The translations under genes and the position numbers were made by a program. Shown here piece by piece: positions 3,575 to 26,445 of a DNA stretch of 48,196 nt. Below the pieces are notes generated by a model, which ran no database searches, was not told the origin of the DNA, and worked only from the letters and a program-made list of their open reading frames with translations. The DNA is from an uncultured Acidimicrobiaceae bacterium. Its GTDB lineage: Bacteria > Actinomycetota > Acidimicrobiia > Acidimicrobiales > SZUA-35. Every line of letters begins with the position of its first letter. Position 1 is the stretch's first letter. The stretch spans positions 1 to 48,196 of the forward strand of contig CAYGQE010000001.1 in the NCBI GenBank assembly GCA_964351995.1, given 5' to 3'.

Positions 3575-3598
3575 TTGGGAGGGGTCGGGTCCTCCCAA
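3575..3598. repeat. GC-rich palindromic element, copy 2 (identical 24-mer)
   Basis: TTGGGAGGGGTCGGGTCCTCCCAA sits between the convergent gene ends at 3527 (+) and 3612 (-). Confidence 0.7.
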
Positions 3599-3611: not shown

Positions 3612-5024
3612 TCAATCGAGCAAGCGGGCGGTGCGCATCACGCCAGTGGCCCGATCGATGAACGTGCCGCTTGCCGCGTCCATGGCAATGATCATGGCCG
3701 GGCCATTCGGATGTTCTTCGAACCACCAGATGCGGTGCAGTTGTGTCGACTGTGTGGCTGTGTCGACGCCGTAGTCAGTTCGGAATGTGAGATCGCAAGG
3801 ATCCTCGGCACTGCAATCGGCATCGGGGTTCGCAAGCAGGTCGAACTGGATGACTTCGGTGCCATCGATGTCGAACCGCTCGATGTCACTCACCGACACC
3901 GCCGATGGCGGGGAGGCGAGGAAGGCCTCGATGTCGTCCATGAGCACGGCCTCACCGGCAACGAGGGGTCCCGCTGTTGGCACCGCATCAACCATGCCGT
4001 TGACCATCACCAGGTCTCGATCACCGGGGCCAATACTTCCCGTGGCCCCGATGGCAACGATCCCGGGGAAGTTCGGGAGCACGAACCAGTCCTCCCCGAG
4101 GTCGAGTACGAGGGCTCGACCGAAATTGTCGATCAGGTAACTACCAGGCTCGACCGGTGAGAAGGGGGCCCCGAGGAGTGGGGGTCCCCCTTCTACAACG
4201 TCGGCTGGCGGGGCCGGCTCGCCAGCTGGCTCCTCAGCCGCAGCCGTGTCGGAGGTCAGGACCTCGTCAAGGCCAGGACCGGTGAACGCCATGCTCGCCA
4301 GCAGCGTGCCGAACGCTGGCTCGAGTGTCTGGGCTTGGTCGGGCTCGAAGAAGGTCATGCCCGCCGTGAGGAGCCCACTTGGCGTTTCAGCGACGAAGGT
4401 GATGCCAAAGGGGAACGGGGACGCACCACTCTGCGGTTCGCTTCCCCGTCGTTGATCTGCGAACAAGAGCGTGTCAGCAGCAGCCAGGGGCGCCTCGGTG
4501 CGGTAGCCAATGAGGCGATACCCGAGGACATCGATCGCCGTTCCTGTTGGTTCGATCGTTGCGCCTGGCACCGACTCGATCGCCGCAATGAAGTCTGCGG
4601 GTTCGCTCACTGGATCGCCGCTCATCAATTGCGAAATGAGCCCAACAGCCGCCGTCGGACCGAACTCGTCAATGGGCCGATCGGAAACAACGACGGTGTC
4701 ACCGGACACGAACAGAGGGTCGCCATCTGCCACCTGGAAGGCCACCCCGCCCATCGAGGAGCCGCGATACAGCTGACGCCCTTCGTCTGGGCGAGTCGCA
4801 AAGGTCACAACATCGACAGAGGCTCCGTCGTCGGCGACATCGGGCTCGGCAGCATCCCGGACATCGCCCTCCAGGAGCGTGGTCTCAGTCGAGTCCACCT
4901 CGACAGCTTGCGTAGCATTCGCGCCGTCAGATGAGTTCGAACAGGCCGTGGCAACGAGTACGAGGGCCAGAACGCCCGATCGAAGTAGGTGCTGTCGGCG
5001 GCGAAGGCGATGGCTGCTGAACAT
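3612..5024 (-). CDS. Secreted lipoprotein of unknown function (about 470 aa, acidic)
   Basis: The internal ATG at 5024 is preceded by GGGGGA 6 nt upstream. The N-terminus MFSSHRLRRRQHLLRSGVLALVLVATACSNSS is a signal peptide with an L-V-A-T-A-C lipobox. I recognise no catalytic motif. Confidence 0.6.
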   Translation of the reverse strand: MFSSHRLRRRQHLLRSGVLALVLVATACSNSSDGANATQAVEVDSTETTLLEGDVRDAAEPDVADDGASVDVVTFATRPDEGRQLYRGSSMGGVAFQVADGDPLFVSGDTVVVSDRPIDEFGPTAAVGLISQLMSGDPVSEPADFIAAIESVPGATIEPTGTAIDVLGYRLIGYRTEAPLAAADTLLFADQRRGSEPQSGASPFPFGITFVAETPSGLLTAGMTFFEPDQAQTLEPAFGTLLASMAFTGPGLDEVLTSDTAAAEEPAGEPAPPADVVEGGPPLLGAPFSPVEPGSYLIDNFGRALVLDLGEDWFVLPNFPGIVAIGATGSIGPGDRDLVMVNGMVDAVPTAGPLVAGEAVLMDDIEAFLASPPSAVSVSDIERFDIDGTEVIQFDLLANPDADCSAEDPCDLTFRTDYGVDTATQSTQLHRIWWFEEHPNGPAMIIAMDAASGTFIDRATGVMRTARLLD

Positions 5025-5091
5025 GTGATTCCCCCATTGTTGGTTCGCGATCCACAACGACGGGCGACCACGCTTTCTGTCGCGGTGACTC

Positions 5092-5117
5092 GGAAATGCT
5101 GTCACGATGTTCCCGTT
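5092..5117 (+). promoter_or_regulatory. ECF-sigma-type promoter: GGAAAT-N16-CGTT, upstream of the ECF sigma gene
   Basis: GGAAAT lies at 5092-5097, followed by a 16-nt spacer and CGTT at 5114-5117. This matches the common ECF autoregulatory consensus GGAAC-N16/17-CGTT. It sits about 40 nt upstream of the sigma start. Confidence 0.4.
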
Positions 5118-5155
5118 GGCGACAGATTCGAGGGAGGTGCGTCGTCGTACCAGGC

Positions 5156-5713
5156 ATGAGGACCCCGAGCGACACGAACGCGGCACCGCTTTGCGCTCCC
5201 GACGTCCGTCAGCACCTCATTGATCTCTACGAAACAACCGTCGGAGATCTCTATCGGTTCTGCCTCTCACGAACGGGAGACCGGGCTGTTGCTGACGACG
5301 CCACTGCCGAAGCATTCCTTGCCGCAGCTCGAACGCTTCGAGAACACCCGGAGTCGGTCGTTGATCGTTCGTGGCTGTTCGTTGTTGCGAAGCGAAGAAT
5401 TGTCGATGCGTGGCGAGCCGAGGAGCGAAACGTTCGAAGACTCAACCGTTTGCGCAAGGAACGATCATCGGCCGACCACGACCCGATCGACGAGATGTTG
5501 GAGGATGGCGGGCGCTCCGAGGCAGTACTGCAGGCACTGCAGTCGCTACCGCCGAGACAAAGGGCAGCGATCACCTTGCGCTACCTCGACGAATGCTCAG
5601 TAGCCGAAGTGGCCGAAACGCTGGGGTGCGAGTACCAAGCCGCTGAATCACTTCTGGCACGTGGGCGACGTGGCTTTTCGATGGCGTGGCAGGAACAGAG
5701 GACACAGCGATGA
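5156..5713 (+). CDS. ECF (sigma-70 family, group 4) RNA polymerase sigma factor
   Basis: Sigma-70 region 2 (DLYRFCLSRTGDRAVADDATAEAFL) and region 4 (LPPRQRAAITLRYLDECSVAEVAETLGCEYQAAESLLARGRRG) are both present. The exact start is uncertain: ATG 5156 is chosen, and the track's 5096 start lies inside the promoter. Confidence 0.8.
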   Translation: MRTPSDTNAAPLCAPDVRQHLIDLYETTVGDLYRFCLSRTGDRAVADDATAEAFLAAARTLREHPESVVDRSWLFVVAKRRIVDAWRAEERNVRRLNRLRKERSSADHDPIDEMLEDGGRSEAVLQALQSLPPRQRAAITLRYLDECSVAEVAETLGCEYQAAESLLARGRRGFSMAWQEQRTQR

Positions 5714-6573
5714 CCGGGGAAAATTCTGAGCTGCTCACCGACTCTGAAATGGCCGAGCTTCTGCGATCACTCGAGACCCACAGTCAGCCGAACTCGGGAG
5801 AACGCGAACGACTCCTCAACGACATGCTCTCTGTTTTCGACGGCGTGAACGAGGCGGACGATCCACGACCCAGCATTGCCACCGTGATCGACGACGAGGT
5901 CACAACGCCACGGAAAGCCTCGACGCTGCGAACCGGCGAGTGGTTCTTGGCTGCCGCAGCCGTGCTGGCCCTCGCCTTCTGGGTCTCGAGACCTGATGTC
6001 TCGAACACCGCCGTCACCGCCTCGGAGACCACCGACCCAGTGCAGTCGGGGCCGACATCGCAGTCGGATGACCCCGGGACTGCAGTGCGATTCTCCAACT
6101 TTGGCGATGGAATACAGCTCCCCTTGCCAGACGGCATCACCGTGGTCGAAGAAACCAGCGATCGAATCTCCTTCACCAGGTCTGCTGATGATCTCTCTGG
6201 CTCGGCCGCCATCGTCCTGATCGCTACAGGGACCACGGACATTGATCAAGAGATCGAGCGTCTCGTTGACGACGAAGCCATCGTCGTCAACGACAGCCGC
6301 GTTCGTGTCGGGGATCAACTCCGCTCTCGCTGGGAAGTCACCATCAGCAACACCACCGCAGCAGATCTCGATTGTGTGGGCATCCAGCCGTGTTTGATCA
6401 TCCCGACCGACGGCGCTGACGTCGTGGTGTGGTCCGGAATCCCGACGATCATCACCTCTCTCGACGTCGATGAGGCCTCGCATGCCGTTTGGCTCGTTCG
6501 GCTCACGAGCTATCAGGACGCACGTGGGCGGACCGTCAGCGGCGAGATGTTGAACGGACTCGAGTTCGGCTGA
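5710..6573 (+). CDS. Putative anti-sigma factor (single transmembrane helix, extracytoplasmic C-terminal domain)
   Basis: The ATG at 5710 overlaps the sigma stop as ATGA, which is translational coupling. A cytoplasmic N-terminal segment is followed by one hydrophobic helix (WFLAAAAVLALAFWV) and a roughly 190-aa C-terminal domain. Calling it an anti-sigma factor is inferred from position. Confidence 0.6.
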   Translation: MTGENSELLTDSEMAELLRSLETHSQPNSGERERLLNDMLSVFDGVNEADDPRPSIATVIDDEVTTPRKASTLRTGEWFLAAAAVLALAFWVSRPDVSNTAVTASETTDPVQSGPTSQSDDPGTAVRFSNFGDGIQLPLPDGITVVEETSDRISFTRSADDLSGSAAIVLIATGTTDIDQEIERLVDDEAIVVNDSRVRVGDQLRSRWEVTISNTTAADLDCVGIQPCLIIPTDGADVVVWSGIPTIITSLDVDEASHAVWLVRLTSYQDARGRTVSGEMLNGLEFG

Positions 6574-6612
6574 CCTGCTCCTGGCCCGCTGCGTTTCATC
6601 TAGCGTTGGGCC

Positions 6613-7356
6613 ATGAAGCTCATTCCTTTGGAGATCGGTCGCCTCGAGGCCAGCCTGTCCATCATCACCGGCGCGGACGACACCGCCACCCTGCCAATTC
6701 CGAGCTGGTTGGTCGAGCATCCCGCTGGCTTGCTGCTGTTCGACACCGGACTCCACCCCGACCTCCAGACCAGCACCGATCGCATCGGCCGCTCGGCTCG
6801 ATTCTTCACGCCCGACTTCCCGGTCGGCGAAGAACTGGCCGCTCGATTGAACGCCCAGGGCATCCGCCCGTCCGACATCACCCACATCGTGTTCAGCCAT
6901 CTGCACTTCGACCACGTGGGTGGCACGGCCGAGGTGCCAGACGCTCGCATCATCGTGCAAGCCGACGAATGGTCGGCTGGCACTGATCCCCGGTTGATCG
7001 AGAAGGGCGCCTACATGCCCGACGACTATGTGCTGGGTCACGACATCCAGACCATCGAAGGGCTGCACGATGTGTTCGGCGACGGCAAGGTCATCTGCGT
7101 ACCGACACCCGGCCACACGATCGGGCACCAGTCGCTACGAGTGAACCTCGATGCTGGCCCCGTCGTGCTCACCGGCGACTGCATCTACTTCCACGAAATG
7201 CTCGAGAGCATGCAGGTGCCGAAGTTCGGTTACGACACCGACCAGCAGAAAGCGTCAATGATCGAGCTGCGGCGGCTCCGAGACGACGAGGGCTGTCGCC
7301 TGTTGTTCGGCCACGACGTCGATCAATTCCGCTCGCTCCCCGCTGTGCTCACGTAG
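6613..7356 (+). CDS. MBL-fold metallo-hydrolase, N-acyl-homoserine-lactonase (AiiA)-like
   Basis: The HxHxDH zinc motif (HLHFDHVGG) is present together with downstream His/Asp ligands (PGHTIGH, GHD). Size is about 250 aa, typical of AHL lactonases. The substrate is not proven. Confidence 0.75.
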   Translation: MKLIPLEIGRLEASLSIITGADDTATLPIPSWLVEHPAGLLLFDTGLHPDLQTSTDRIGRSARFFTPDFPVGEELAARLNAQGIRPSDITHIVFSHLHFDHVGGTAEVPDARIIVQADEWSAGTDPRLIEKGAYMPDDYVLGHDIQTIEGLHDVFGDGKVICVPTPGHTIGHQSLRVNLDAGPVVLTGDCIYFHEMLESMQVPKFGYDTDQQKASMIELRRLRDDEGCRLLFGHDVDQFRSLPAVLT

Positions 7357-11617: not shown

Positions 11618-12280
11618 GTGTCTGAGTTCTTTGAAATCGTGTTCGGCCTACCCACGATCCTGTTCACTGCCGCGCTCGCCATCAGCCTCGGCTTCTTCCT
11701 CATCACCTTCCTGTTCGGTGTGGGCGAAGGTGGAGGAAGCGACTTCGACGTCGAGCTCGATGCTGGCGGTCCAGACGCTGGCGGGTCTGACGGTGCCGAC
11801 GGCGACAGCACCGGTGCACTCGCTGGCCTGCTCCAAGCCGCCAACCTGCACATACTTCCGCTGGCCCTGACCTTCGCCATCGTCTCGCTGGTCGGCTGGT
11901 TCATTTCAGCGGTGTGCACCCTGTTGCTCACCTCGGACAACTCTCCCAACTTCGCAGCATCGCTTGCCTTCGTGCTCACTGGCCTCGCCGGAGGCATCTT
12001 CGTTGCCGGTCGAGTCGGTAACCTTCTCAGCCCGATCTTCGTGCCCGCTGTCCACGTCAAGCGCCGTGACCTCATCGGCCGCCTGTGCACCGTGCAGACC
12101 GGCCGAGTCGACCGAAACTTCGGTCAAGCCGAAGTGGTCGACGGCGAACGAAGTACTCATCTCATCCAAGTCCGATGCGAGATCGACAACGATCTTCGCT
12201 CGGGCATGCGTGCCCTCATCGTCGATGTCGACGACGACGGCCGCTTCATCGTGTCGCCCGACGTGAAAGACCTCGTCTGA
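11618..12280 (+). CDS. NfeD-like membrane protein (YuaF/NfeD short form) with C-terminal OB-fold
   Basis: GTG at 11618 with a GGAGAGG RBS 8 nt upstream. There are two or three TM helices, a Gly/Asp-rich linker and a C-terminal beta-rich domain. The position immediately upstream of a flotillin gene is the classic nfeD-floT arrangement. Confidence 0.65.
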   Translation: MSEFFEIVFGLPTILFTAALAISLGFFLITFLFGVGEGGGSDFDVELDAGGPDAGGSDGADGDSTGALAGLLQAANLHILPLALTFAIVSLVGWFISAVCTLLLTSDNSPNFAASLAFVLTGLAGGIFVAGRVGNLLSPIFVPAVHVKRRDLIGRLCTVQTGRVDRNFGQAEVVDGERSTHLIQVRCEIDNDLRSGMRALIVDVDDDGRFIVSPDVKDLV

Positions 12281-12365: not shown

Positions 12366-14327
12366 ATGGGCACCATCATCCTCATTCTCGTCTTCCTGGT
12401 CCTGGGAGTCCTGGCCTTCGCCGTCCTGGCCGGCCTGGTGTACTCATCGCTGTACAAGAAGGTGCCACAGGGCAAGGCACTCGTTGTCTCCACGGCCAAG
12501 AACGTCGAGGTGACCTTCACTGGTCGCCTTGTGATCCCCGTGATCCACAAGGCCGAGATGATGGACATCTCGGTCAAGACCATCGAGATCGATCGCAGAG
12601 CGCACGAGGGTCTGATCTGCGAAGACAACATCCGAGCCGACATCAAGGTCAATTTCTTCGTTCGGGTCAACAAGGCCGAAGAAGACGTGATCAAAGTGGC
12701 TCAAGCCATTGGTTGCGAGCGAGCCAGCCAGGTCGAAACCTTGGAAGAGCTCTTCACCGCAAAGTTCTCCGAGGCGCTCAAGACCGTCGGCAAGCAGATG
12801 GAGTTCATCTCGCTCTACACCGAGCGGGCCAGCTTCCGTGACCGCATCATCGAGGTCATCGGCACCGACCTCAACGGCTACAGCCTCGAAGACGTCGCCA
12901 TCGACTTCCTCGAGCAGACGCCGCTGAGCCAGCTCGACGCCGACAACATCCTCGACTCACAGGGCATTCGCAAGATCACCGAGCTGACCGCCATCGAGAA
13001 GGTCGCTACCAACAACGCTGCCAACGACGAGCGAAAGCAGATCACAGCCAAGAACGTCGAGACCCGTGAAGCCGTGCTCGAACTCGAGCGCCAGCAGGCC
13101 GATGCCGAGGCTCGGCAACGTCGAGAGATTCAGGGCGTGCAGGCTCGCGAGCAAGCCACAATCGACACAATTACCGCCGAAGAGCGACTGCGGGCCGAGA
13201 TGGCCGCGATCGAAGTCGACCAGAAGCTTGGCGTCGAACGAGAAAACCTGCAGCGCGAGGTCGAAGTCGCGGCGAAGAATCGTGAGCGCGTCCTCGCCGT
13301 CGAAGAAGAGCGAGTCAAGAAAGCCGCCGAACTCGAAGACATGAGCCGCCAAGTCGAGACGCTCGCTGCCGAGAAGGCACTCGAAACCGAGATGGGCACG
13401 ATCGCCGAGATTCGCCGAAGCCGCATTGCCATCGACAAGACCGTGGCCGAACAAGAAGAAGCCATCGAGACATTGCGCATGGTCGAGGAGGCGCAACGTC
13501 AGAAGCAGTCAGCAATCATCCTCGCTGAGGGTGAAGCGGAAGCCGCGCTGGTCAAGGACATAAAGGCCGCCGAAGCACAGGCGGCAGCTGCCGAACACCT
13601 GGCCGCCGAAGACGTTCGCATGGCCAAGGGTCGAATGGAGGCAAGCAACCTCGACGCCGCAGCGAAGATCAAGCTGGCCGAAGGTGTCCAGGCCGAAGCA
13701 GCCGCAGTTGGTCTGGCCGAAGTCGAAGTGCTGGAAGCCCGAGCTGCGGCCAACGAAAAGCTCGGTCTCGCCGATGTCACCGTCGAACGAGCCAAGGCCG
13801 ACGCCGTGCGTGAGCTCGGTGCCGCCGAGGCCTCCAAAGTCCGCGACGCCGGAATGGCCGAGGCTGAAGTTGTCGAGGCCAAGCTCAAGGGTGAGGCCAG
13901 CGGTCTGACCGACAAGGCTGCGGCCATGCGCGAGCTCGAAGGGGTTGGCCAAGAGCACGAGGAATTCGTGCGCAAGCTGGAAGCCGACACGAAGGTGCGG
14001 CTGGCACAAGTCGATGCATCCATCGACGTGGCGACGGCACAGGCCGATGCGATGAAGGTCGGTCTGGAGAGCGCCAACATCGACATCGTCGGCGGCTCGG
14101 ACATCTTCATCGACAAACTGGTCGGCGCCATCAGCACCGGCAAGGCCGTCGATGGCTTCGTCGAGAGTTCCGACCTTGCGTCGGCATCGCTCGAGAAGTA
14201 CCAGAACGGTGACGAGGACTTGGTGGCCAAGATCTCCGAAGCCATCGCTGGTCTCGGCGCCGACGGCATTCGCGACCTCTCCGTTGCTGATCTCCTTCGC
14301 CAGCTCGGTGCCGGTCCTCGGCCCTAG
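12366..14327 (+). CDS. Flotillin-like protein (SPFH/band-7 domain plus long EA-rich coiled coil)
   Basis: An N-terminal TM/hairpin helix and an SPFH core (KVPQGKALVVS...IKVNFFVRV) are present. An extended Glu/Ala/Arg-rich coiled-coil region of about 350 aa resembles FloT-type flotillins. Confidence 0.8.
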   Translation: MGTIILILVFLVLGVLAFAVLAGLVYSSLYKKVPQGKALVVSTAKNVEVTFTGRLVIPVIHKAEMMDISVKTIEIDRRAHEGLICEDNIRADIKVNFFVRVNKAEEDVIKVAQAIGCERASQVETLEELFTAKFSEALKTVGKQMEFISLYTERASFRDRIIEVIGTDLNGYSLEDVAIDFLEQTPLSQLDADNILDSQGIRKITELTAIEKVATNNAANDERKQITAKNVETREAVLELERQQADAEARQRREIQGVQAREQATIDTITAEERLRAEMAAIEVDQKLGVERENLQREVEVAAKNRERVLAVEEERVKKAAELEDMSRQVETLAAEKALETEMGTIAEIRRSRIAIDKTVAEQEEAIETLRMVEEAQRQKQSAIILAEGEAEAALVKDIKAAEAQAAAAEHLAAEDVRMAKGRMEASNLDAAAKIKLAEGVQAEAAAVGLAEVEVLEARAAANEKLGLADVTVERAKADAVRELGAAEASKVRDAGMAEAEVVEAKLKGEASGLTDKAAAMRELEGVGQEHEEFVRKLEADTKVRLAQVDASIDVATAQADAMKVGLESANIDIVGGSDIFIDKLVGAISTGKAVDGFVESSDLASASLEKYQNGDEDLVAKISEAIAGLGADGIRDLSVADLLRQLGAGPRP

Positions 14328-14409: not shown

Positions 14410-17400
14410 ATGACTGATACTGAAAGTTCAACAATTGAAGAAGCACCGGCGAGCAGCAATGAGGGGATCTCGCAGGGGACCTATGACTTGCTTCGAGGGC
14501 GGCTGGAAGCCGCGGCCAAGGAACTGGTCAAGCGAGCGGATGCTCTCAACGCCCGGCGGCTTGAGGCGTTCGGTTCAGCCAAGCTCGAACTGCTGACGAC
14601 GGAACGGGTTCGGACCGAGCTCAACACGATCCCGCGCGACATCGCCAACATCGGCTCGCAGATGGTCATGGCCTACAACGCCGAGGTCGGCGTCCGGTCA
14701 GAGGTCCGACCGGAGGACGTCTTCAGCGTCCATCACCTCGAGCCCGGCTCCGAGGGCGACGCCACCCTGTGGTTCAGTCCGAACCCCAAAGGTCTCGACG
14801 GCTCAGCCCTCGATGACGACCAGTTCCGTCGTGACTTCGAAGAGCTCCACACCTACTTCAGTCAGACAAAACTCGAACAGCTCTACGCCGTTGGCCAGAA
14901 GCTGTTGGCGGTGTTTCGCACCGGCCAAGGCGAGGGCGACCTTCGCGTCTTCCGTTGGGAGATCGGACTCGACGACCAGCTGACCTACCTCGACGCTCGA
15001 GGCGATCGAGACCACCGCTTCCCGCCGTCACAAGACGTCTCGTGGACGTTGTCGACCCGCGCCGATCACGTCAACGCCACGCATGTGGGGCTGGGCGAGC
15101 GCGTGCTGATCGACCCGCTCGGCGGGTCGCTGGTGATCCAACTGGCCGATGGCGGAGGCGATGGTTCAGGCACAAAGCTGCTGAGCGATCGCCTCGACCA
15201 CGCTGACCAGAGCTTGCAGGACTGCACCATTCGCTGGGCCAGAGCTGGCGATCTGATGCTGATCGACGTGCTTCCCTACGGCGAAGTTCAGCACCGCTAC
15301 TACATCGTGAATCTGCTGGTCGACAAGGCCGTCCGCATGGATGCGCTGGGGTCTGCGTTCCGTCAGCTACCCGATGGCCAGGGCCTCATCTTTCCCGAGG
15401 GCATCTACCTCAAGACCGGCGAGATGCGAACCTTCGATGTCGACTCTGCCAACGCCGAGTTGCTCGAAGTGGTCCGCTCCCCCAACGGCGAAGACGTGCT
15501 CTACGTCTTCCACGAACGCACCTCCGGCCGTTCCATCTTGTTGCCGTACAACGTGGTGCGTCAGGAAGTGGCGGCACCGATCTGGTGTCACGGTCACACC
15601 GTGTTCGATGACGGAACGCTTGTGGTGTTTCGCGAGGAGCCAGAGCCCACACGCATCCATCCGATGCAGGTTTGGTCGACGCCGTTCGGCGCCGACGAGT
15701 GGTATGCCCAACAGCCACGCACCGCATCAAACCTTGACCGCATCGGTAACGCCAGCCTCGTCAGCGGCATCGCCGACGCACTCTCGCTGTCCCGGCTGAT
15801 CGCCGACGTCGAGCCGTCGACCGCCATCTACACCGATCTCCTGTTGTCCGCTAGCCGATTCGTCGACAGCCATCACTGGAGCGGTGACGAAACTGTTGGC
15901 AACCTGGCCGAGAGCGCCCACGACATACGTGTCGTTGCGGAGCAGGTCATCGACGAGTTCGAGCGTATGCAAGCGGTACAAGCTGCGGCCGCTGCAGCCC
16001 TGGCAGAGGCCGAAGCCGAAGCGCTCAAGATCACCGATGACCTTCGCCTCTCGCCGCCGAAGACCACCGAGGGTTTCATTGACGGCCTGGCCGCGATCCG
16101 TCGCCAGATCGGACACCTCCACACCGAGCGTGAGCGCCGCGGTATCGACATCGCTCGCATCGACGAGCTGATCACCTCGACCACCGAAATCCACGACACG
16201 CTTGCCCAGCAAGCAGCGGCTCACCTCGCCGCCGACGGAGCGTTCGAGCCGTACCACCAGCAACTCACTACGCTCTCCAACGCCACCCCCGCTGCAGCGT
16301 CGTCACTGGAAGCAACCGAGACCCTCGAAGCCGTCGATGCACTGGCTGAATCGATGGATCTGGTCGCCAACACGGTGAGCGATCTCGTCGTTGACGACCC
16401 TCGCGTGCGCACCTCGGTGCTCGAACAGGTGGCGGGCGTGCTCGCCGAGATGAATCGGGTGCGGGCCGGCATCGAAGGCAAGCGAGATGAGCTGATCCAG
16501 AACGAGACCGGCGCGGCCTTTGCCACTGAGCTCGGCTTGTTCGGCCAGTCGATCGCCACTGCAGTCAGCCGGGCCAACACCCCTGAAGCCTGCGACGACG
16601 CGTTGGCCCGTCTCTTGCTTCAGCTCGAACAACTCGAAACCGCTGGTCCCCGCACCGACGACCAGGTCGAGGAGCTCTCCACCAGGCGAGACCAGGTCAC
16701 CGAGGCACTCACGTCTCGTCGGCAGCAACTGGTCGACGATCGCCAGCAGCGAGCCGATCGACTGATCGCCGCCGCCACCCGAACCCTGGACCGAGTGGCC
16801 GAGCGGGCACAGACAATGCCGTCAGCCGACGACGTCAACGCCTTCTTCGCCGCCGACCCCATGGTCGGCCGTGTCCGCAAACTGGTCGAGGATCTCCGCG
16901 AGCTCGGTGAGCCCGTCAGAGCAGACGAATTGCAGTCACAACTCGGCGCCTCCCGGGACCGTGCCGTCCGTGCGCTGCGAGACCGCCAGGATCTCTTCGA
17001 CGGCGACGCCGTGAAGCTCGGCCGCTTTCGCTTCAGCGTGGACGATCGCACCCGCGAACTCACGCTCGTCCCCGGCGAGCATCACCTGCAGGCCGTGCTC
17101 ACCGGCACCGATCTGCGACTCCCCATCGAAGACGAACGACTTGATGCTCACAAAGAGCTCTGGGAGCAACCGCTGGCATCTGAGACGCCCAAGCTGTACC
17201 GATCAGCCTTCCTCGCCGGCGACCTCCTCCTCACCGCACTCAGTCAATTCAATTCGTCTGAACAGCTCGACGGCGAGATCTCGCTCACTATTCCAGAGCC
17301 CAAGATCGGCACGGTCGACGGTGCCGTCACGCCGGGTGACACGACCGCATTGCTCGATCAGGTCCGATCGGCGGTTGATCGGCGCCTCGGCGAGGGGTAC

Positions 17401-19470
17401 GACCGTGGGGTTCATGATGTCGACGCCACGCAGATCCTCGGGGTCATCGGCACCAGAGCCATCGAGGCCGGACCGCTCACGACGCCGAGTGATGTGCGGG
17501 CCAATGCCCAGGTCGTGTGGGCGGGGCTGGCCGATGCATCTCGCCACCTGTGGACCGATCGAGGTCGAGCCATCGCCACCGCAGGCGCAGGCCGGGCCAC
17601 GCTCGACCGGCTGGCCGAGGAGCTGGTCGACACAACCAACAGTGACCGGCGCATGGCCGACTATCTGCTGTCGGAACTCGTCCGTCCAGAGGGCTTCAGT
17701 TTCGCTCAATCCTCCCGAGCCGCTGATCAGATCGCCACCATGCGACGGGACAAGGCGTTCAAAGCGGTGCTCGAAGCGGCCAGAGCCGACGTCGTTGGCA
17801 TCCTCCCGGTCATCGCCGACGCCGTGCAACGAGCGATGCCAGACGAACGCCATGTCGTCCCCGAGATCGCCGTCGCCCTTGCCATTCCTGACCTCGAACG
17901 GCGCACCGTCGATGTCGAGCTCGGCTTCACCGTGGCCGGCCTCAACGGCCGCCACCCCACCATCGTCGACGGCAAGATGACCGGTCGGATCGACGATCTC
18001 CTCGACCAAGTCGCCCAGCACCGGGCAACGGTCCTGCCGATGCACCAGGCCTTTGCCGCTGCTCGGCGCGAAACCCTCGAAGGCTTGCGCAAGACGCTTC
18101 GAGTCGACGACCTCGAGCCCCGAGTGCCCGATGGTTTCGTCCGCAACCAGCTGATCGACCAGATCTACCTGCCGCTGATCGGCGACAACCTCGCCCGCCA
18201 GATCGGCACCGTCGATGACCAGGGTGGCCAGCGATCTGGGCTGTTGATGCTGCTGTCGCCTCCCGGCTACGGCAAGACCACGCTGGTCGAATACGTCGCC
18301 TCTCGCCTCGGCATGGCACTGGTGAAAGTGTCGGGCCCCGGCCTTGGTCACGAAGTCACCTCGCTCGACCCCGGCCAGGCGCCGAGCGCCACGGCGGCTC
18401 GTGAGATCGAACGGATCAACCTGGCCTTCGCCGTTGGCACCAACGTCATCTTGTATCTCGATGACATCCAACACACCGACCCCGAACTGCTGCAGCGCTT
18501 CATCTCGCTGTGTGACGCCCAGCGCAGGGTCGAGGGTGTGTGGAACGGCGAGAGCCGAACGTTCGACCTCCGAGGTAAGCGCTTCGCCGTGGTGATGGCG
18601 GGCAATCCCTACACCGAGTCCGGCGATCGGTTCCGCATTCCCGACATGCTCGCCAACCGCGCCGACACCTACAACTTGGGTGACGTGCTCTCGGGCAACG
18701 AAGACGTCTTCGCTCGCAGCTACATCGAGAACGCTCTCACGGCCAACCCCACGCTTGCTCCGCTGGCAGGTCGAAGCGCAGCCGATCTCCAGCTGTTCTT
18801 CCGGGCGGCTGAGGGTTCGCCGCTCGAAGAATCATCGCTCGAACACGGCTACTCCAGCGCAGAGTCGAGCGAGATCGTCACTGTCCTCGGCCACCTCATG
18901 CGAGTCCAAGAAGTCGTCCTGAAGGTCAATCGGCAGTACATCGCATCAGCGGCCACCGACGATCAGTACCGCACCGAACCACCGTTTCTGCTGCAGGGTT
19001 CGTATCGAAACATGGCCCGCATGGCGTCAAAGCTTCTTCCAGCAATGACCAACGCTGAAGTCGATCGCATCGTTGACGAGCACTACGTCGCCGAGTCCCA
19101 AGCGCTCACCGGTCAGGCAGAAGCGAACCTGCTGAAGCTCGGCTCGATGCGAGGAACGTTGACTGCCGAACACCAAGAGCGATGGGACGACATCCTGCGT
19201 GTGTTCCAGCGTCAACAGCGCCTCGGCGGCGACGACCGCGACCCCGCCACTCGCGTGGTCGCAGCAATCGAGCAGGTGGCGGAAACGCTGTCTCGCCAGA
19301 GCAGTCAGGGTTCACAGTCCAGCAAGCCGGCGGAGCCACCGGTGATCAACATCACCGTTCCCGCTCCCGTCGTGGTGTCGTCACTCCCCGACCCGGCCGA
19401 CGAACCCCTCGCCCCATCGATCGACCTGACGCCAGACGAAGGCCCCGAACCCCCCGACGACCCCCGCTGA
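14410..19470 (+). CDS. Giant 1686-aa protein: long N-terminal region of unknown function plus C-terminal AAA+ (P-loop) ATPase domain
   Basis: This is a single uninterrupted ORF. It has Walker A SPPGYGKTT, Walker B ILYLDDIQ, and an AAA_5/McrB/MoxR-like sensor segment MAGNPYTESGDRFRIPDMLANRADTYNL, at roughly residues 1270-1500. The N-terminal 1250 aa are a mixed beta-rich and long helical/coiled-coil region with no motif I can assign. The C-terminal tail is Pro/Ser-rich. The gene is co-directional with nfeD-floT, 82 nt downstream of floT. Confidence 0.8.
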   Translation: MTDTESSTIEEAPASSNEGISQGTYDLLRGRLEAAAKELVKRADALNARRLEAFGSAKLELLTTERVRTELNTIPRDIANIGSQMVMAYNAEVGVRSEVRPEDVFSVHHLEPGSEGDATLWFSPNPKGLDGSALDDDQFRRDFEELHTYFSQTKLEQLYAVGQKLLAVFRTGQGEGDLRVFRWEIGLDDQLTYLDARGDRDHRFPPSQDVSWTLSTRADHVNATHVGLGERVLIDPLGGSLVIQLADGGGDGSGTKLLSDRLDHADQSLQDCTIRWARAGDLMLIDVLPYGEVQHRYYIVNLLVDKAVRMDALGSAFRQLPDGQGLIFPEGIYLKTGEMRTFDVDSANAELLEVVRSPNGEDVLYVFHERTSGRSILLPYNVVRQEVAAPIWCHGHTVFDDGTLVVFREEPEPTRIHPMQVWSTPFGADEWYAQQPRTASNLDRIGNASLVSGIADALSLSRLIADVEPSTAIYTDLLLSASRFVDSHHWSGDETVGNLAESAHDIRVVAEQVIDEFERMQAVQAAAAAALAEAEAEALKITDDLRLSPPKTTEGFIDGLAAIRRQIGHLHTERERRGIDIARIDELITSTTEIHDTLAQQAAAHLAADGAFEPYHQQLTTLSNATPAAASSLEATETLEAVDALAESMDLVANTVSDLVVDDPRVRTSVLEQVAGVLAEMNRVRAGIEGKRDELIQNETGAAFATELGLFGQSIATAVSRANTPEACDDALARLLLQLEQLETAGPRTDDQVEELSTRRDQVTEALTSRRQQLVDDRQQRADRLIAAATRTLDRVAERAQTMPSADDVNAFFAADPMVGRVRKLVEDLRELGEPVRADELQSQLGASRDRAVRALRDRQDLFDGDAVKLGRFRFSVDDRTRELTLVPGEHHLQAVLTGTDLRLPIEDERLDAHKELWEQPLASETPKLYRSAFLAGDLLLTALSQFNSSEQLDGEISLTIPEPKIGTVDGAVTPGDTTALLDQVRSAVDRRLGEGYDRGVHDVDATQILGVIGTRAIEAGPLTTPSDVRANAQVVWAGLADASRHLWTDRGRAIATAGAGRATLDRLAEELVDTTNSDRRMADYLLSELVRPEGFSFAQSSRAADQIATMRRDKAFKAVLEAARADVVGILPVIADAVQRAMPDERHVVPEIAVALAIPDLERRTVDVELGFTVAGLNGRHPTIVDGKMTGRIDDLLDQVAQHRATVLPMHQAFAAARRETLEGLRKTLRVDDLEPRVPDGFVRNQLIDQIYLPLIGDNLARQIGTVDDQGGQRSGLLMLLSPPGYGKTTLVEYVASRLGMALVKVSGPGLGHEVTSLDPGQAPSATAAREIERINLAFAVGTNVILYLDDIQHTDPELLQRFISLCDAQRRVEGVWNGESRTFDLRGKRFAVVMAGNPYTESGDRFRIPDMLANRADTYNLGDVLSGNEDVFARSYIENALTANPTLAPLAGRSAADLQLFFRAAEGSPLEESSLEHGYSSAESSEIVTVLGHLMRVQEVVLKVNRQYIASAATDDQYRTEPPFLLQGSYRNMARMASKLLPAMTNAEVDRIVDEHYVAESQALTGQAEANLLKLGSMRGTLTAEHQERWDDILRVFQRQQRLGGDDRDPATRVVAAIEQVAETLSRQSSQGSQSSKPAEPPVINITVPAPVVVSSLPDPADEPLAPSIDLTPDEGPEPPDDPR

Positions 19471-19472
19471 AG

Positions 19473-19527
19473 TTGGGAGGGTCCGACCCCTCCCAACTGT
19501 TGCGTGGGAGGGGTCGGGTCCTCCCAA
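19473..19527. repeat. Tandem pair of the same GC-rich palindromic elements (copies 3a and 3b) filling a convergent intergenic gap
   Basis: Copy 3a at 19473-19496 is TTGGGAGGGTCCGACCCCTCCCAA, a variant with an 11-bp stem. Copy 3b at 19505-19527 is TGGGAGGGGTCGGGTCCTCCCAA, identical over 23 nt to copies 1 and 2. Together they lie between the stop of the giant gene (19468-19470) and the stop of osmC (19529-19531). Confidence 0.7.
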
Positions 19528-21228: not shown

Positions 21229-21830
21229 GCGACGAGTTTGCCTGGTCCAGCAGCGATCACCGCGGGATCCCACGGGGTTCGAGCGAACACTTCCTGCACC
21301 TCGTCGACAAACGATGCGAGCGAGTCGATCGGGCCGTCCGGGTCGAACGAGTTCTGGTCCCATTGTGCGCAGAAGTCGGCGCAGAGTTCGAACCAAGGGT
21401 GGCCGGCGAATGCGTCCCGACCATTGCGATCACCGCCGAGGTGATGCGAGTAGTAGTAGCTCTGGAACACACCGTGCTGCTCGATCACCCAGCTCACCTC
21501 CTCCCGAACGTACGGACGCAACACACTGGCGGCATATTCGGCGTGGTTGTACGGAGCGAGCGCATCGCCGATGTCGTGCAAAAGGGTGGCAACAACCCAG
21601 TCGATGTCGGCTCCGGCCCGCCGGGCGCGAGTAGCGCTCTGTAGCGAGTGCTGCCGACGAGTGATCTGGTAGCCGTCGAGCGAGTCTTCGAGCCCAGCCA
21701 GTTCAGCAATCAAGCGGTCGGCCAGACCAGCGGCCGCCTTTCGTTCGAATCGATCGAGCATCGCGTAGTCAGCGGCGGTGCCGTGCTGCATCTCGGTGAA
21801 GGACACAGTGGTGTGTTCGGTCGAGGTCAT
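21225..21830 (-). CDS. PhnZ-family HD-domain oxygenase (mixed-valent diiron, C-P bond cleaving type)
   Basis: The protein is 201 aa. It has the HD motif LLHDIGD plus upstream QHSLQ, RAGAD and downstream EQHGV, which match the metal-ligand pattern of PhnZ/MIOX-type HD oxygenases. The start overlaps the upstream gene's stop. Confidence 0.7.
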   Translation of the reverse strand: MTSTEHTTVSFTEMQHGTAADYAMLDRFERKAAAGLADRLIAELAGLEDSLDGYQITRRQHSLQSATRARRAGADIDWVVATLLHDIGDALAPYNHAEYAASVLRPYVREEVSWVIEQHGVFQSYYYSHHLGGDRNGRDAFAGHPWFELCADFCAQWDQNSFDPDGPIDSLASFVDEVQEVFARTPWDPAVIAAGPGKLVA

Positions 21831-23020
21831 GCGGTGCTCTCATTTCGGGCGGCCAGGATCCATTCGGTGATGGGGCCGTCGTGGTCGATGTAGCACCCTT
21901 GCAAATGTCGATGGCCGAGGGTGGGATCGAAGGATGTCCGGCCGTGGAGCACCCGGTGATTGTCGACCACCAGGGTGTCGCCAGCGGACATGCGGTACTC
22001 GAGCTGGCGACTCGGATCGTTGAGCACCTCAGCGAGCCAGCGCCGTCCCCGGTAATAGATGTCGAGCGTCTTCCGATTGGCCAGCGGTGCGAAGTCGAGG
22101 CGAGGTGAGAATCGCAGTTGGCGAAACGATCCGTCCAGGTGACGCTCGATCAGCGGCGCTCGATGCACCTTCACATCCGTGCCGATGTCGTAGCGAAACT
22201 CCACCGGCAACGAACACAACAACTCGTACGCCTCCGGGTCGGCGACGGCCAGATCGTCAACCGCCGCTCGCCCGTCGACCATCGTCGAAGCGCCGCCGGG
22301 TGCATCGTTCACGATGGTGTGAAGGAATTGCAGCCCCGGTGCGGGCGCCCGGTACGGCTGATCGGTGTGGGCCGACAATGCCACCGGGGTGTAGGCAAGA
22401 TCGACCGCCATCGGTTCGGTGCGGACATCGAACAGCACGCCGAAGTTGGTCGCTGAGATCCGTCCAAAGTGCGAAGTGATCTCGTGCAGGGCACCGGGAA
22501 CTGCGGGAGTTCCGCGCAGCACGAAGAAGCCAAGCTCGAAGAAGGCGGTGAGCGCATGACGCTTTGCCGCGATCGCCACATCGACATGATCACCGGCGAT
22601 GGCACCGAAGTCGATGACCGGCACGTCGGTGCTGGCGGCCCGCCACGGAACCGCAGCGGGCGGCCCTTCCCTCTCGACACGTCGATGCTCCAGCGCTCGA
22701 ATCGTCGAGAGCGGCAAACACATCGCGTGTCCATCGGTGAACGTGACTTCGAGCTGCTGGTCGCACGTCAGGCCCGCTCGTACGACCTGCAGGTCGACGC
22801 TGATGTCTGTCGGTTCGATCAGACGCTGGCCGTTGACCGGATCGACAGCGTCCATCGATGTCGAACGCTCCCGCAACCACAACGGGTGGAGATCGATGAG
22901 CTCACAACCCCACCGGAGCAGCACACCACCGTCAACGACACGTACCTCGACACTTCCACGCACCAACACGCCACGATCATCGGTGCAGATGGATCGGCTG
23001 TACAGCCGCCGAGTTGGCAA
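21827..23020 (-). CDS. Fe(II)/2-oxoglutarate dioxygenase of the gamma-butyrobetaine-hydroxylase/TauD family (PhnY*/TmpA-like) with N-terminal DUF971-like domain
   Basis: An N-terminal Cys/His/Trp-containing segment (LRWGCELIDLHPLWLRER) resembles the gBBH N-domain. The C-terminal part carries a TauD-like HxD...H facial triad region (HTDQPY...HGR). The start is uncertain: it is a TTG at 23020, and internal GTG starts are possible. Confidence 0.65.
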   Translation of the reverse strand: MPTRRLYSRSICTDDRGVLVRGSVEVRVVDGGVLLRWGCELIDLHPLWLRERSTSMDAVDPVNGQRLIEPTDISVDLQVVRAGLTCDQQLEVTFTDGHAMCLPLSTIRALEHRRVEREGPPAAVPWRAASTDVPVIDFGAIAGDHVDVAIAAKRHALTAFFELGFFVLRGTPAVPGALHEITSHFGRISATNFGVLFDVRTEPMAVDLAYTPVALSAHTDQPYRAPAPGLQFLHTIVNDAPGGASTMVDGRAAVDDLAVADPEAYELLCSLPVEFRYDIGTDVKVHRAPLIERHLDGSFRQLRFSPRLDFAPLANRKTLDIYYRGRRWLAEVLNDPSRQLEYRMSAGDTLVVDNHRVLHGRTSFDPTLGHRHLQGCYIDHDGPITEWILAARNESTA

Positions 23021-23023
23021 GCT

Positions 23024-23044
23024 GCCATACTCTCAAAGCATGGC
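23024..23044. promoter_or_regulatory. LysR-type T-N11-A box GCCAT-N11-ATGGC in the divergent intergenic region
   Basis: GCCAT at 23024-23028, an 11-nt spacer, and ATGGC at 23040-23044. It lies between the dioxygenase start (23020, -) and the lysR start (23072, +). Confidence 0.4.
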
Positions 23045-23071
23045 TCTCTCGATTCGGTGGCGAACCTCGAC

Positions 23072-23977
23072 ATGAGACCACTCGTGCGATCGGTCGATCG
23101 GCTTCAGCGGCTGGCCACATTCGAAGCGGCGGCACGGTTGGGCAGCTTCTCGGCTGCCGGGCGCGAACTCGGGCTGGCCCAACCAGCGGTGACCAGGCAA
23201 ATTCAGGCTCTCGAGCGAGCACTCGACGTCTCGCTCTTCGAGCGTCACGCCAATCGCAGCACCTTGACCGACGCCGGTCATCTCCTCGCCGACAGTCTCG
23301 ACATCAGCTTCGGTGCGCTCGAACACACGCTCGACGAGATCGCGCGCGTCGACGACACCTTCGTCCTTGCCATGCCGCCCGGCTTTGCCCAGCAACTGAT
23401 CGTTCCCCGGCTCGATGAGCTCCAACGGGCCCTCGGCGATCGGGATCTCCGGCTTTGGCTCTATGACCGAGAGGCAGAACTGGGACACAGTTCGTTTGAC
23501 GCCGCTGTCCGGGTCGGGACAGGAGATTGGGCTGGCTTCGACTGCCAGTTCCTTCTGGCCGAGGTCGTGCTTCCTGTCTCGACTCCAGCCGTCGCCGAGC
23601 AGTGGGGACTTGGCCCTGAGAGTACAGCCGATGATGTCCTGCGGGCCCCGCTACTGCACATGGACGCCGCCGACCGGCCATGGCTGTCGTGGTCAGACTG
23701 GCTGGCCACGTTCGGTCTCGCCCTCACACCTGGGCGGCGCCGAGTGGTCTTCAACAACTACCCGTCGGTGCTGCAGCAGGTCGTCAGCGGTCAAGGCGTT
23801 GCGCTGGCATGGTCAGGTCTCACTGATCAACTGATCGCCGATGACGTACTGACGATCGTTGGGCCATCGGTCGCCTCGGACCGGGCGTACCACGTCACCT
23901 GGAAGCATGGCCGTCGAACCGCAGCGGTGGATTCGGTCAGCACATGGCTGGCCGAGACCGTCGCTCGCCCAGAGTGA
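23072..23977 (+). CDS. LysR-family transcriptional regulator
   Basis: An N-terminal wHTH (LQRLATFEAAARLGSFSAAGRELGLAQPAVTRQIQALE) and a LysR substrate-binding domain are present. The start is at the internal ATG 23072, because the long track ORF is antisense overlap. Confidence 0.85.
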   Translation: MRPLVRSVDRLQRLATFEAAARLGSFSAAGRELGLAQPAVTRQIQALERALDVSLFERHANRSTLTDAGHLLADSLDISFGALEHTLDEIARVDDTFVLAMPPGFAQQLIVPRLDELQRALGDRDLRLWLYDREAELGHSSFDAAVRVGTGDWAGFDCQFLLAEVVLPVSTPAVAEQWGLGPESTADDVLRAPLLHMDAADRPWLSWSDWLATFGLALTPGRRRVVFNNYPSVLQQVVSGQGVALAWSGLTDQLIADDVLTIVGPSVASDRAYHVTWKHGRRTAAVDSVSTWLAETVARPE

Positions 23978-24735: not shown

Positions 24736-25692
24736 ATGGCGTCCTCGCATAGTGTCTCGCCCGTGAACTCAGCACCTGATCTTCCCACCATTGGCTTCGT
24801 CGGCCTCGGCAACATGGGCGGACCCATGGCTCGCCGCCTGGCGGCCGCAGGGCACGAGGTCATCTGTTTCGATCTCAACGCCGATGCAATTGCCGAAACG
24901 GTCACTGCTGGCGCCCGTGCCGCAAGCTCCGCCGCTGCGTGCGCTTCGGCTGCCGAACTGTTCTTGACCTCGCTCCCCCGGCCCGACCACGTCGAAGCAG
25001 TCATGGGCGGGCCAGAAGGTGCTCTCGCTGCGTTGCAGCCGGGCTCGATCTGGGTTGATCTCACCACGAACCGCAAAGAACTCGTGCAGGCCTTCGCAGC
25101 GGCAGCGCCAGACGGGGTCACCGTTGTCGACTCGCCCGTCACCGGCGCGGTTGACGGTGCCAGGAACGGAAAACTCACCCTCTTTGCGGGCGGTGACGAC
25201 GCTTCGCTTGATCGGGTCGTCCCCGTGCTCGAGAACCTCGGCCTGGTCATCCGTTGCGGTCCACTTGGCACTGGCAACGTGGTGAAGTTGGTCACCAACC
25301 AGCTGTGGTTCGTCGCTGCAGCAGCGATTGGAGAGGGTTTCGCGACCGGTCTCGCGAACGGCGTCGACCTCGACACCTTGTGGTTCGCCATCAAGGAGAG
25401 CGTTGGCGACAGCTTCGTTGCCCGGCATGACGCACCGTCGATCTTTGCCGGCCACTACGACCCCTCGTTCAGCCTCGATCTCTGCCTGAAGGACCTCGGT
25501 CTCATTCAGGAACTCAACAGACCAATCGATGCCAGCTTCCCCATGACCGACGCAGCCCAAGCGACGTTCCAAAAGGCAGCGGATCGCTACGGCAGCGACG
25601 TCGGCGAGTTGCACGTGGCAAAACAGATCGAGGACGACGCCCAATTGTCGTTCCGGCTCGACGGCGACTGGACCCCGCCCTGGGAGCAGTAG
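24736..25692 (+). CDS. NAD(P)-dependent beta-hydroxyacid dehydrogenase (3-hydroxyisobutyrate dehydrogenase family), second copy
   Basis: The motif IGFVGLGNMGGPMA and a conserved catalytic Lys region (GNVVKLVTN) are present. Confidence 0.85.
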   Translation: MASSHSVSPVNSAPDLPTIGFVGLGNMGGPMARRLAAAGHEVICFDLNADAIAETVTAGARAASSAAACASAAELFLTSLPRPDHVEAVMGGPEGALAALQPGSIWVDLTTNRKELVQAFAAAAPDGVTVVDSPVTGAVDGARNGKLTLFAGGDDASLDRVVPVLENLGLVIRCGPLGTGNVVKLVTNQLWFVAAAAIGEGFATGLANGVDLDTLWFAIKESVGDSFVARHDAPSIFAGHYDPSFSLDLCLKDLGLIQELNRPIDASFPMTDAAQATFQKAADRYGSDVGELHVAKQIEDDAQLSFRLDGDWTPPWEQ

Positions 25693-25821
25693 GCAGCCTC
25701 CCCGACCGGCACGGGGATGACCCCGATGCCTCCGTTGGTCGCTGTGAGAGAATGTCCTTCGGTCCCGGCAAGAACCGTCCGATGAAGACGGGGACCAATC
25801 GCGACCTGGAGGGGTTCCACA

Positions 25822-26445
25822 ATGAAGATCTACGTACCGACCATCACCGCACGACGTCTTGGTGTGACCGGCGCCGGGCTGGTGTTCGCTCTGAGCATGA
25901 CCGGCTGCGGCGCCCTTGCCGAGGAAGCCATCGAGCAAGCCATCGAAGCCGACAGCGGCGAAAGCGTTGAGATCGACTTCGACGGTGACGACGGCACACT
26001 CACCATCGAGGGCGAGAACGGCGAAGAATTCTCGATCGACGTCGACGAAGACGGCGACGGCGGCTCGGTCATGTCGAGCACCGACGAGGACGGCAACACC
26101 TTCGAGATGGTTACGGGCGAGGGCCTCCCCGACAACTGGCCGACCGAACTTCCCGTTCCTCCGGGAACCATTGTCAGCTCGACCATGATGAGCGAGAACG
26201 ATGATCGAATCCTGACCCTCGTGACAGAGGTCGACGACGCCGCCACCGCTCACGACGAGTACGTCGACCAGCTGACCAGCAACGGATTCACGACTGGCAG
26301 CACGTCGTCGTTCGAGAGCGACAGCCAAACCTCGAAGTTCACCGAGGTCAGCAGCGCTGACTGGAACGGCATGATCAGCAGCGGCACCGACAGCGCCGAT
26401 GGCCCGCAGCAACTCGTTGTCAACTTCCAGAGCGTCACCGAATAG
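25822..26445 (+). CDS. Acidic secreted lipoprotein of unknown function
   Basis: GGAGGGG RBS upstream. A signal peptide with an LSMTGCG lipobox is present, and the mature part is very rich in Asp, Glu and Ser. Confidence 0.6.
   Translation: MKIYVPTITARRLGVTGAGLVFALSMTGCGALAEEAIEQAIEADSGESVEIDFDGDDGTLTIEGENGEEFSIDVDEDGDGGSVMSSTDEDGNTFEMVTGEGLPDNWPTELPVPPGTIVSSTMMSENDDRILTLVTEVDDAATAHDEYVDQLTSNGFTTGSTSSFESDSQTSKFTEVSSADWNGMISSGTDSADGPQQLVVNFQSVTE

Follow-up and report, generated by a model that had tools for sequence, protein, structure and literature searches.

The window analysed here, a stretch of 48,196 nucleotides (nt) with ~63% G+C from an uncultured Acidimicrobiaceae bacterium (contig CAYGQE010000001.1, positions 1 to 48,196), carries a three-gene module on the forward strand. 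Its first gene encodes a YqiJ/YuaF-like (NfeD-type) membrane protein of 220 amino acids (aa; 11618..12280), its second a 653-aa protein that is anchored by a transmembrane (TM) segment and appears SPFH/flotillin-like (12366..14327), and its third and last a 1686-aa ATPase that combines DUF3686, DUF7902 and an AAA+ module (14410..19470). A first-pass annotation was confined to the last of these open reading frames (ORFs) and so missed the flotillin-like and YqiJ-like operon partners, the most informative fact about the ATPase. Across related loci, the ATPase gene is obligately linked to a flotillin/NfeD-type pair and recurrently linked to PspA and rhomboid genes.

The ATPase ORF, 14410..19470 on the forward strand, is unbroken. 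An exact copy of its 1686-aa product is present in NCBI data, on a 262-kb contig, and full-length relatives of the same length class exist, some at 82–91% identity and many at 38–72%, so that neither a frameshift artefact nor a chance ORF accounts for it. The first-pass annotation had named a sequencing frameshift that splits the ORF into several ordinary genes as a finding that would overturn it; this is not the case, as full-length homologues of 1600–1900 aa with identical Pfam architecture, at 38–91% identity, occur in many phyla. The loci nearest to this one are in metagenome-assembled genomes (MAGs) of Acidimicrobiales. The motifs that had been read from the letters all sit where they were placed: Walker A, GYGKTT, at aa 1286–1291 (18265–18282, exact to the nucleotide), Walker B, LYLDD, at aa 1348–1352 (18451–18465), and the sensor/Arg-finger segment NPYTESGDRFRIPDMLANRADTYNL at aa 1399–1423.

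Conserved partners of the ATPase gene

Our survey comprised 80 related loci, 76 of them with upstream DNA (the remaining 4 end at a contig edge); the Pseudomonas megaplasmid pQBR103 is designated locus L081. Wherever upstream DNA is available (76 of 76 loci), the next gene before the ATPase gene, in the same orientation, is a homologue of 12366..14327, at a median distance of ~117 nt. The loci with this flotillin-like neighbour span Actinomycetota, Myxococcota, Gammaproteobacteria, Acidobacteriota, Planctomycetota and one Clostridia MAG. Clustering of ORFs finds a YqiJ-like gene ahead of the flotillin-like gene, in the same orientation, in 72 of the 80 loci; tblastn with the 220-aa window protein as query finds it in 57. 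Beyond PspA and rhomboid genes, which are lineage specific, the flanking genes of the 80 loci include no further conserved family.

The lineage-specific partners belong to gammaproteobacterial versions of the module, which have PspA upstream and often a rhomboid gene downstream (L081, L034, L047, L056, L063, L064, L067, L071–L073, L075, L076 and L079). There, a PspA/IM30 gene stands directly upstream of the trio in 10 loci (10/81, with pQBR103 counted), and in 6 loci the next gene downstream encodes a rhomboid protease. On pQBR103 (NC_009444.1 85395–104317), the trio is preceded by a yjfJKLMC-like cluster in the order PspA, rhomboid, DUF2491, DUF350, DUF1190 and glutathionylspermidine synthase; its yjfKLMC-like genes do not recur in the other loci surveyed.

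Both partner proteins are divergent in the window, and their orthologues make them easier to place. The 220-aa protein, for which public data contain a gene call of exactly this product with its start at GTG 11618, aligns as an N-terminal TM segment, an acidic linker, two further TM segments and a C-terminal OB-like domain. It matches Pfam YqiJ_OB with an expectation value (E) of 0.042, below the cut-off, and its orthologues reach 2e-4 for YqiJ_OB and 0.015 for YqiJ_N. In the 653-aa protein, a TM segment at the N terminus is accompanied by a helical region rich in Ala and Glu; no Pfam model, Band_7 and Flot included, matches the protein even at E ≤ 10. Its orthologues are 43–71% identical to it, and 5 of the 17 match Band_7/SPFH (best E = 5e-11); the family profile weakly matches QmcA (E = 0.0076) and flotillin-1 (E = 0.43), and the pQBR103 orthologue is annotated as "SPFH domain-containing protein". 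Taken together, the orthologue matches, the profile matches and the pQBR103 annotation point to an SPFH/flotillin-like protein. As the gene at 12366–14327 escapes the Band_7 and Flot models, automatic annotation may leave it unnamed.

The first two genes of the module are of the type of the NfeD-flotillin pairs YqiJ-YqiK of Escherichia coli and YuaF-FloT of Bacillus subtilis, as indicated by the weak YqiJ_OB and YqiJ_N matches and by Band_7 in orthologues, although the window proteins are too divergent for Pfam cut-offs. The YqiJ-YqiK and YuaF-FloT operons are not known to contain the ATPase gene. In the comparison of Ravi et al. (mSystems 2024, PMC11237479), the ATPase accompanies the YqiJ/flotillin pair only in some cases.

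Architecture and motifs of the ATPase

Pfam assigns DUF3686 (PF12458) to aa 38–489 over the full profile (positions 1–448; E = 1.3e-150, 502 bits against a cut-off of 25) and DUF7902 (PF25472) to aa 611–694 (16240–16491; E = 4.5e-20, 72 bits), with AAA (PF00004) and AAA_5 both above their cut-offs. The N-terminal two thirds, which the first-pass annotation had been unable to place in any family, are therefore covered by DUF3686 and DUF7902, and the whole protein by the NCBI family name "DNA repair ATPase"; Pfam likewise describes DUF3686 as "ATPase involved in DNA repair". The ATPase lacks TM segments.

We built two AlphaFold2 models, each from 94-sequence alignments, for aa 1–1200 (mean predicted local distance difference test score (pLDDT) 88.2, predicted template modelling score 0.55) and aa 1181–1686 (mean pLDDT 86.4). 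The DUF3686 region (14521..15876) takes in an N-terminal helix at aa 16–54 and then a beta-propeller-like all-beta domain at aa 60–425, modelled with ~27 strands at high pLDDT. Foldseek matches this domain to WD40, kelch and other propellers, among them DCAF1, Vps18, Sec12, KLHDC3 and the clathrin N-terminal domain, with a probability of 1.0 and target-normalised template modelling scores (TMt) of 0.3–0.42. Next comes a long-helix bundle at aa 447–862 (15748..16995), with modelled helices of up to 58 residues and DUF7902 inside it, followed by a small beta subdomain at aa 867–906 and a second helical domain at aa 931–1158 (together 17008..17883). The AAA+ alpha/beta core, defined by Pfam, AlphaFold2 and Foldseek, occupies aa ~1245–1427 (18142..18690), and a C-terminal helical region made up of a lid and an extra helical domain occupies aa 1431–1634 (18700..19311; helices modelled at pLDDT >90). 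This layout comes close to what had been read by eye, a beta-rich block at about residues 100–470 and helices at about 500–1150. The claim of a single AAA+ module near the C terminus is also supported by Pfam and by the modelled fold, and the aa 1–1200 model shows nothing like a second one.

What kind of AAA+ module this is can be narrowed down. Among the Pfam AAA models, AAA_5 alone covers the entire core (profile positions 2–126 of 139, E = 9e-8, above cut-off), whereas PF00004 aligns to the P-loop half only; AAA_3, the model for MoxR proper, matches marginally (10 of 15 members, best E = 0.0089). Against the Protein Data Bank (PDB), the AAA+ model gave 645 Foldseek matches at E ≤ 1e-3, and the top 50 listed are AAA+ ATPases; the best target-normalised matches are the MoxR-type CbbQ2 and NorQ (TMt 0.54–0.61), followed by MCM and RuvB. 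Sequence and profile searches of the PDB with the protein, the family profile and a profile of the AAA core matched classical AAA proteins (Rix7, NVL, p97 and Rpt3) and RuvB over the Walker A/P-loop half only, and these searches left the AAA+ clade unsettled. Profile and fold searches alike place the core in AAA+ and not in the ABC/SMC type.

The model places a pre-sensor-1 beta-hairpin at aa 1373–1386, just before the strand that ends at Asn1399. From position and conservation we infer that Asn1399, after beta4, is a putative sensor-1 and that Arg1417, within PDMLANRAD, is a putative Arg finger; the NPYTE...PDMLANRAD segment that holds both corresponds to 18604–18678. The AAA+ module appears to be a divergent, hairpin-bearing one of MoxR-like kind. 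It shares with the MoxR-type proteins CbbQ, NorQ and RavA (AAA_5/AAA_3) the AAA_5 match over the whole core, the hairpin and an NP..E..G....P....R segment at the putative sensor and Arg finger, but differs from them in its marginal AAA_3 match, a Walker B of DD instead of DE, ~1250 extra N-terminal residues, a P-loop half that scores better with classical AAA proteins (Rix7, NVL and p97) and the lack of a conserved VWA partner. Pfam finds no VWA domain in the ATPase itself, and the 80 loci hold no conserved gene for a VWA partner; the ATPase is therefore not a MoxR in the strict sense. Nor is it specifically McrB-like: no McrB chain is among the Foldseek top 50, and no McrC-like neighbour is conserved in the 80 loci. 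Of the AAA_5 assignment (MoxR/McrB/midasin-type) first proposed for the core, the AAA_5 fit and the MoxR-type resemblance stand, and McrB falls away.

Conservation was read from alignments of 15 and 94 sequences and from pattern searches over 201 homologues. SPPGYGKT, (L/I/V)DDIQHT, MAGNPYTE and PDML.NR.D are invariant in the alignments, with Ala1415 and Ala1418 invariant, or nearly so, in most sets. PPGYGKTT, which fits the AAA+ Walker A consensus GxxxxGK[ST], is found in 191 of the 201 homologues. In the C-terminal helical region, LQGSYR.M is invariant within a conserved RTEPPF.LQGSYRNM. The general Walker B consensus is hhhhDD/E (PMC2323615). The DD noted here at first sight (ILYLDD) is real and family-wide: all ~198 homologues that include the region have DD and none has DE, so that the Mg-binding Asp is kept and an Asp takes the place of the catalytic Glu throughout. 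The second acidic residue of Walker B normally primes the attacking water, and a DD Walker B is typical of switch-like NTPases, namely DnaA and the STAND proteins. A 39-aa Walker B query aimed at DD-type relatives such as DnaA found no match in the PDB. Because the second residue is Asp, a variant within the consensus and with precedent in DnaA and STAND proteins, the invariant DD suggests slow, switch-like or regulated ATP hydrolysis.

A further motif, R..EGY(D/E)RGVHDxDA, lies in the second helical domain (aa 992–1006; 17383–17427), well away from the AAA+ module. It is near-invariant and as conserved as the nucleotide-binding motifs, and its EGY(D/E)RGVHDxDA part (aa 995–1006) counts among the invariant stretches of the alignments; the invariant columns are R992, E995, G996, Y997, G1000, H1002, D1003 and D1005, and the full pattern occurs in 159 of the 201 homologues.

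The C-terminal tail (19312..19467) is another matter. It had been taken as part of the architecture, disordered and Pro-rich, and both descriptors hold: pLDDT is below 50 over most of aa 1650–1677, and the last 60 aa contain 14 Pro, 9 Ser and 6 Asp. The tail is not conserved, however, and the length beyond LQGSYRN ranges from 95 to 562 aa across homologues (median 110, 152 here); a Pro-rich tail is lineage specific and not a family feature. Some homologues (P0077, P0097 and P0116, from Acidobacteriota and others) carry an extra conserved C-terminal extension of ~200 aa after a low-complexity linker, and one (P0042) is listed with a PASTA domain (PF03793); the window protein has neither.

The architecture as a whole, first thought unusual for a protein of this size with one AAA module, is constant throughout a family that comprises hundreds of clusters at 50% identity. 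More than 2000 proteins match the ATPase at E ≤ 1e-10, and at least 595 species representatives carry the gene, which lies on megaplasmids or chromids in 13 records. The N-terminal domain alone gives 642 clusters at 50% identity, 201 of them at E ≤ 1e-30. DUF3686 is always N-terminal in proteins of 1600–1900 aa when these are complete, and the set of DUF3686, DUF7902 and AAA is precomputed for most of the 120 best homologues.

The family has also been described before. Ravi et al. (PMC11237479) delineated the same operon by comparative genomics, with three components that include a 3TM YqiJ/YuaF protein and a band-7/flotillin protein; the order of genes and domains in their supplementary table agrees with ours. 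They found the operon with a CesT/Tir-PspA dyad in some lineages and abbreviated operons without PspA more widely. The window copy shares the Pfam architecture, length, invariant motifs and three-gene order of that DUF3686-AAA operon; it lacks the CesT/Tir-PspA dyad of the longer operons, which makes it an abbreviated form, has the lineage-specific Pro-rich tail and differs in nothing essential. It is one more member of a family already described computationally, not a discovery of this window. The literature searched held no mention of DUF3686 or PF12458, no experimental work on the DUF3686-AAA family or operon, and nothing relevant that ties flotillin to a "DNA repair ATPase" or to MoxR; two papers on SPFH proteins (PMC2636767 and PMC13086221) do not mention the ATPase.

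Probable role of the ATPase at the membrane

Because the ATPase gene always follows the genes for the flotillin and its small partner protein, the ATPase family most likely works on the cell membrane and not on DNA. We favour, with some confidence, a reading in which the ATPase is the soluble subunit of a conserved three-gene membrane module and serves as an AAA+ remodeller or chaperone of the flotillin scaffold in membrane stress. The single AAA+ module would assemble into a ring, presumably a hexamer, as AAA+ modules generally do, and the beta-propeller and helical bundles could attach the ATPase to the cytoplasmic flotillin assembly or to clients bound to it. Cycles of ATP binding and hydrolysis might then power the assembly, remodelling or disassembly of the scaffold under membrane stress, in whichever direction, by a mechanism analogous to that of NorQ/CbbQ with their partners, Vps4 with ESCRT-III or FtsH inside the HflK/C cage. 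The AAA+ fold, the intact Walker A, the conserved putative sensor-1 and Arg-finger positions and the closeness to MoxR-type remodellers are in keeping with this role. So is the independent comparative genomics of the same operon, which proposed a chaperone-like role in sub-membrane assembly (PMC11237479).

Known systems offer partial parallels. Like HflK/HflC-FtsH, the module pairs an SPFH scaffold with an AAA+ ATPase at the membrane, by analogy only. FtsH is a membrane-anchored classical AAA protease enclosed in the HflK/HflC SPFH cage, whereas the window ATPase has no protease domain and no TM segment. Like Vps4 with ESCRT-III, of which PspA is a bacterial counterpart, it is an AAA+ ATPase genetically coupled to a membrane-remodelling polymer, given that PspA is linked in some loci; it differs from Vps4 in that it has no MIT domain, belongs to another AAA+ clade and does not have PspA as an invariant partner.

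Several points weigh against the role that we favour. Conserved synteny is a functional link that does not show what the ATPase acts on. Both partner proteins of the window score below Pfam cut-offs, and no PspA gene is adjacent to the module there. Substrate threading is doubtful because the position of the aromatic pore loop of classical unfoldases reads LGHEVTSLDP, with no aromatic residue.

A more specific form of the remodeller role is a tentative possibility: the ATPase could be a dedicated, ATP-driven assembly or disassembly factor for bacterial flotillin cages, with the propeller and helical part coating the SPFH dome and the AAA+ ring recycling it. If this is true, flotillin microdomains would have their first known energy-dependent regulator, and the ATPase would be a prokaryotic parallel to the logic of Vps4/ESCRT-III and NSF/SNARE. 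Genetically locked to the flotillin-NfeD pair across at least six phyla, the giant AAA+ ATPase is a concrete candidate for an energy-dependent regulator of how bacterial flotillin scaffolds assemble, turn over and couple to stress.

Alternatively, the flotillin platform might merely localise a MoxR-like chaperone whose client is something else, such that the ATPase inserts, matures or extracts another membrane protein or a PspA-type polymer that the propeller recognises. The nearest folds, NorQ and CbbQ, do remodel specific client enzymes, PspA and rhomboid genes are linked to the module in Gammaproteobacteria, and it has been suggested that such modules act with PspA homologues encoded elsewhere (PMC11237479). 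Yet no gene for a client or a VWA adaptor is conserved beside the trio, PspA is linked in 10 of 81 loci only and not in the window, and the flotillin is the sole invariant partner; we regard this alternative as rather unlikely.

Considerably less probable is a conflict or defence module, for example one causing abortive infection by membrane damage, with the ATPase as sensor or switch and the membrane proteins as effectors. The patchy distribution across phyla, the 13 megaplasmid or chromid records and the variable flanking genes would suit such a module, as would the size and multidomain make-up of the protein, its repeat sensor domain and a Walker B that reads DD, as in switch-type STAND NTPases. 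PADLOC, however, returns no significant match to the ATPase (best IetA, E = 0.0013, confined to the P-loop), the genes next to the module in the window have ordinary metabolic roles, and the fold matches AAA+ remodellers, not STAND proteins. A role as a coiled-coil DNA repair ATPase of SMC/SbcC-like type, for which the Pfam/NCBI name and a weak coiled-coil-type PADLOC match to LmuB (E = 0.0033) might speak, is highly improbable, since the ATPase is a contiguous C-terminal AAA+ module and not an ABC/SMC head split by a coiled coil, Pfam detects neither a DNA-binding nor a nuclease domain, genes of DNA metabolism do not recur beside it, its invariant partners belong to the membrane, and the literature searched is silent on the domain (DUF3686, PF12458).

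The label "DNA repair ATPase" very probably goes back to an old misannotation. Nothing in our analysis supports it, and it spreads via automatic annotation and hides the probable membrane function of a large family.

Surroundings of the module in the window

The genes around the module encode an allophanate hydrolase, an isochorismatase, an ABM monooxygenase, an OsmC protein, a HIBADH-like dehydrogenase, a TauD-family protein and a LysR-type regulator, all ordinary metabolic genes. A sequence scan found no sigma-70 promoter and no T-tract terminator for the operon. Two G+C-rich hairpins, at 19471–19498 and 19505–19526 (together 19471..19526, no strand), were missed by the T-tract scan and read directly from the sequence; they fill the 58 nt that separate the stop codon of the ATPase gene from that of the convergent OsmC gene. 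The pair probably serves as a bidirectional terminator where the operon ends; more broadly, the hairpins may be terminator or REP-like elements. Both hairpins share TGGGAGGG(G)TC, which also occurs at 479–489 and 3576–3586, a count not above chance with one mismatch allowed.

Further from the module, ORFs at 3612–5186, 5767–7128 and 24769–26412, all on the reverse strand, encode 524, 453 and 547 aa with no Pfam match at E ≤ 0.001, and could represent either unknown proteins or the shadow ORFs of a genome with high G+C. The LysR-type ORF at 22469–23977 on the forward strand overlaps the divergent TauD-family gene (21827–23020, reverse strand) by ~550 nt. Because its helix-turn-helix begins only at aa 212, its true start probably lies near 23100.

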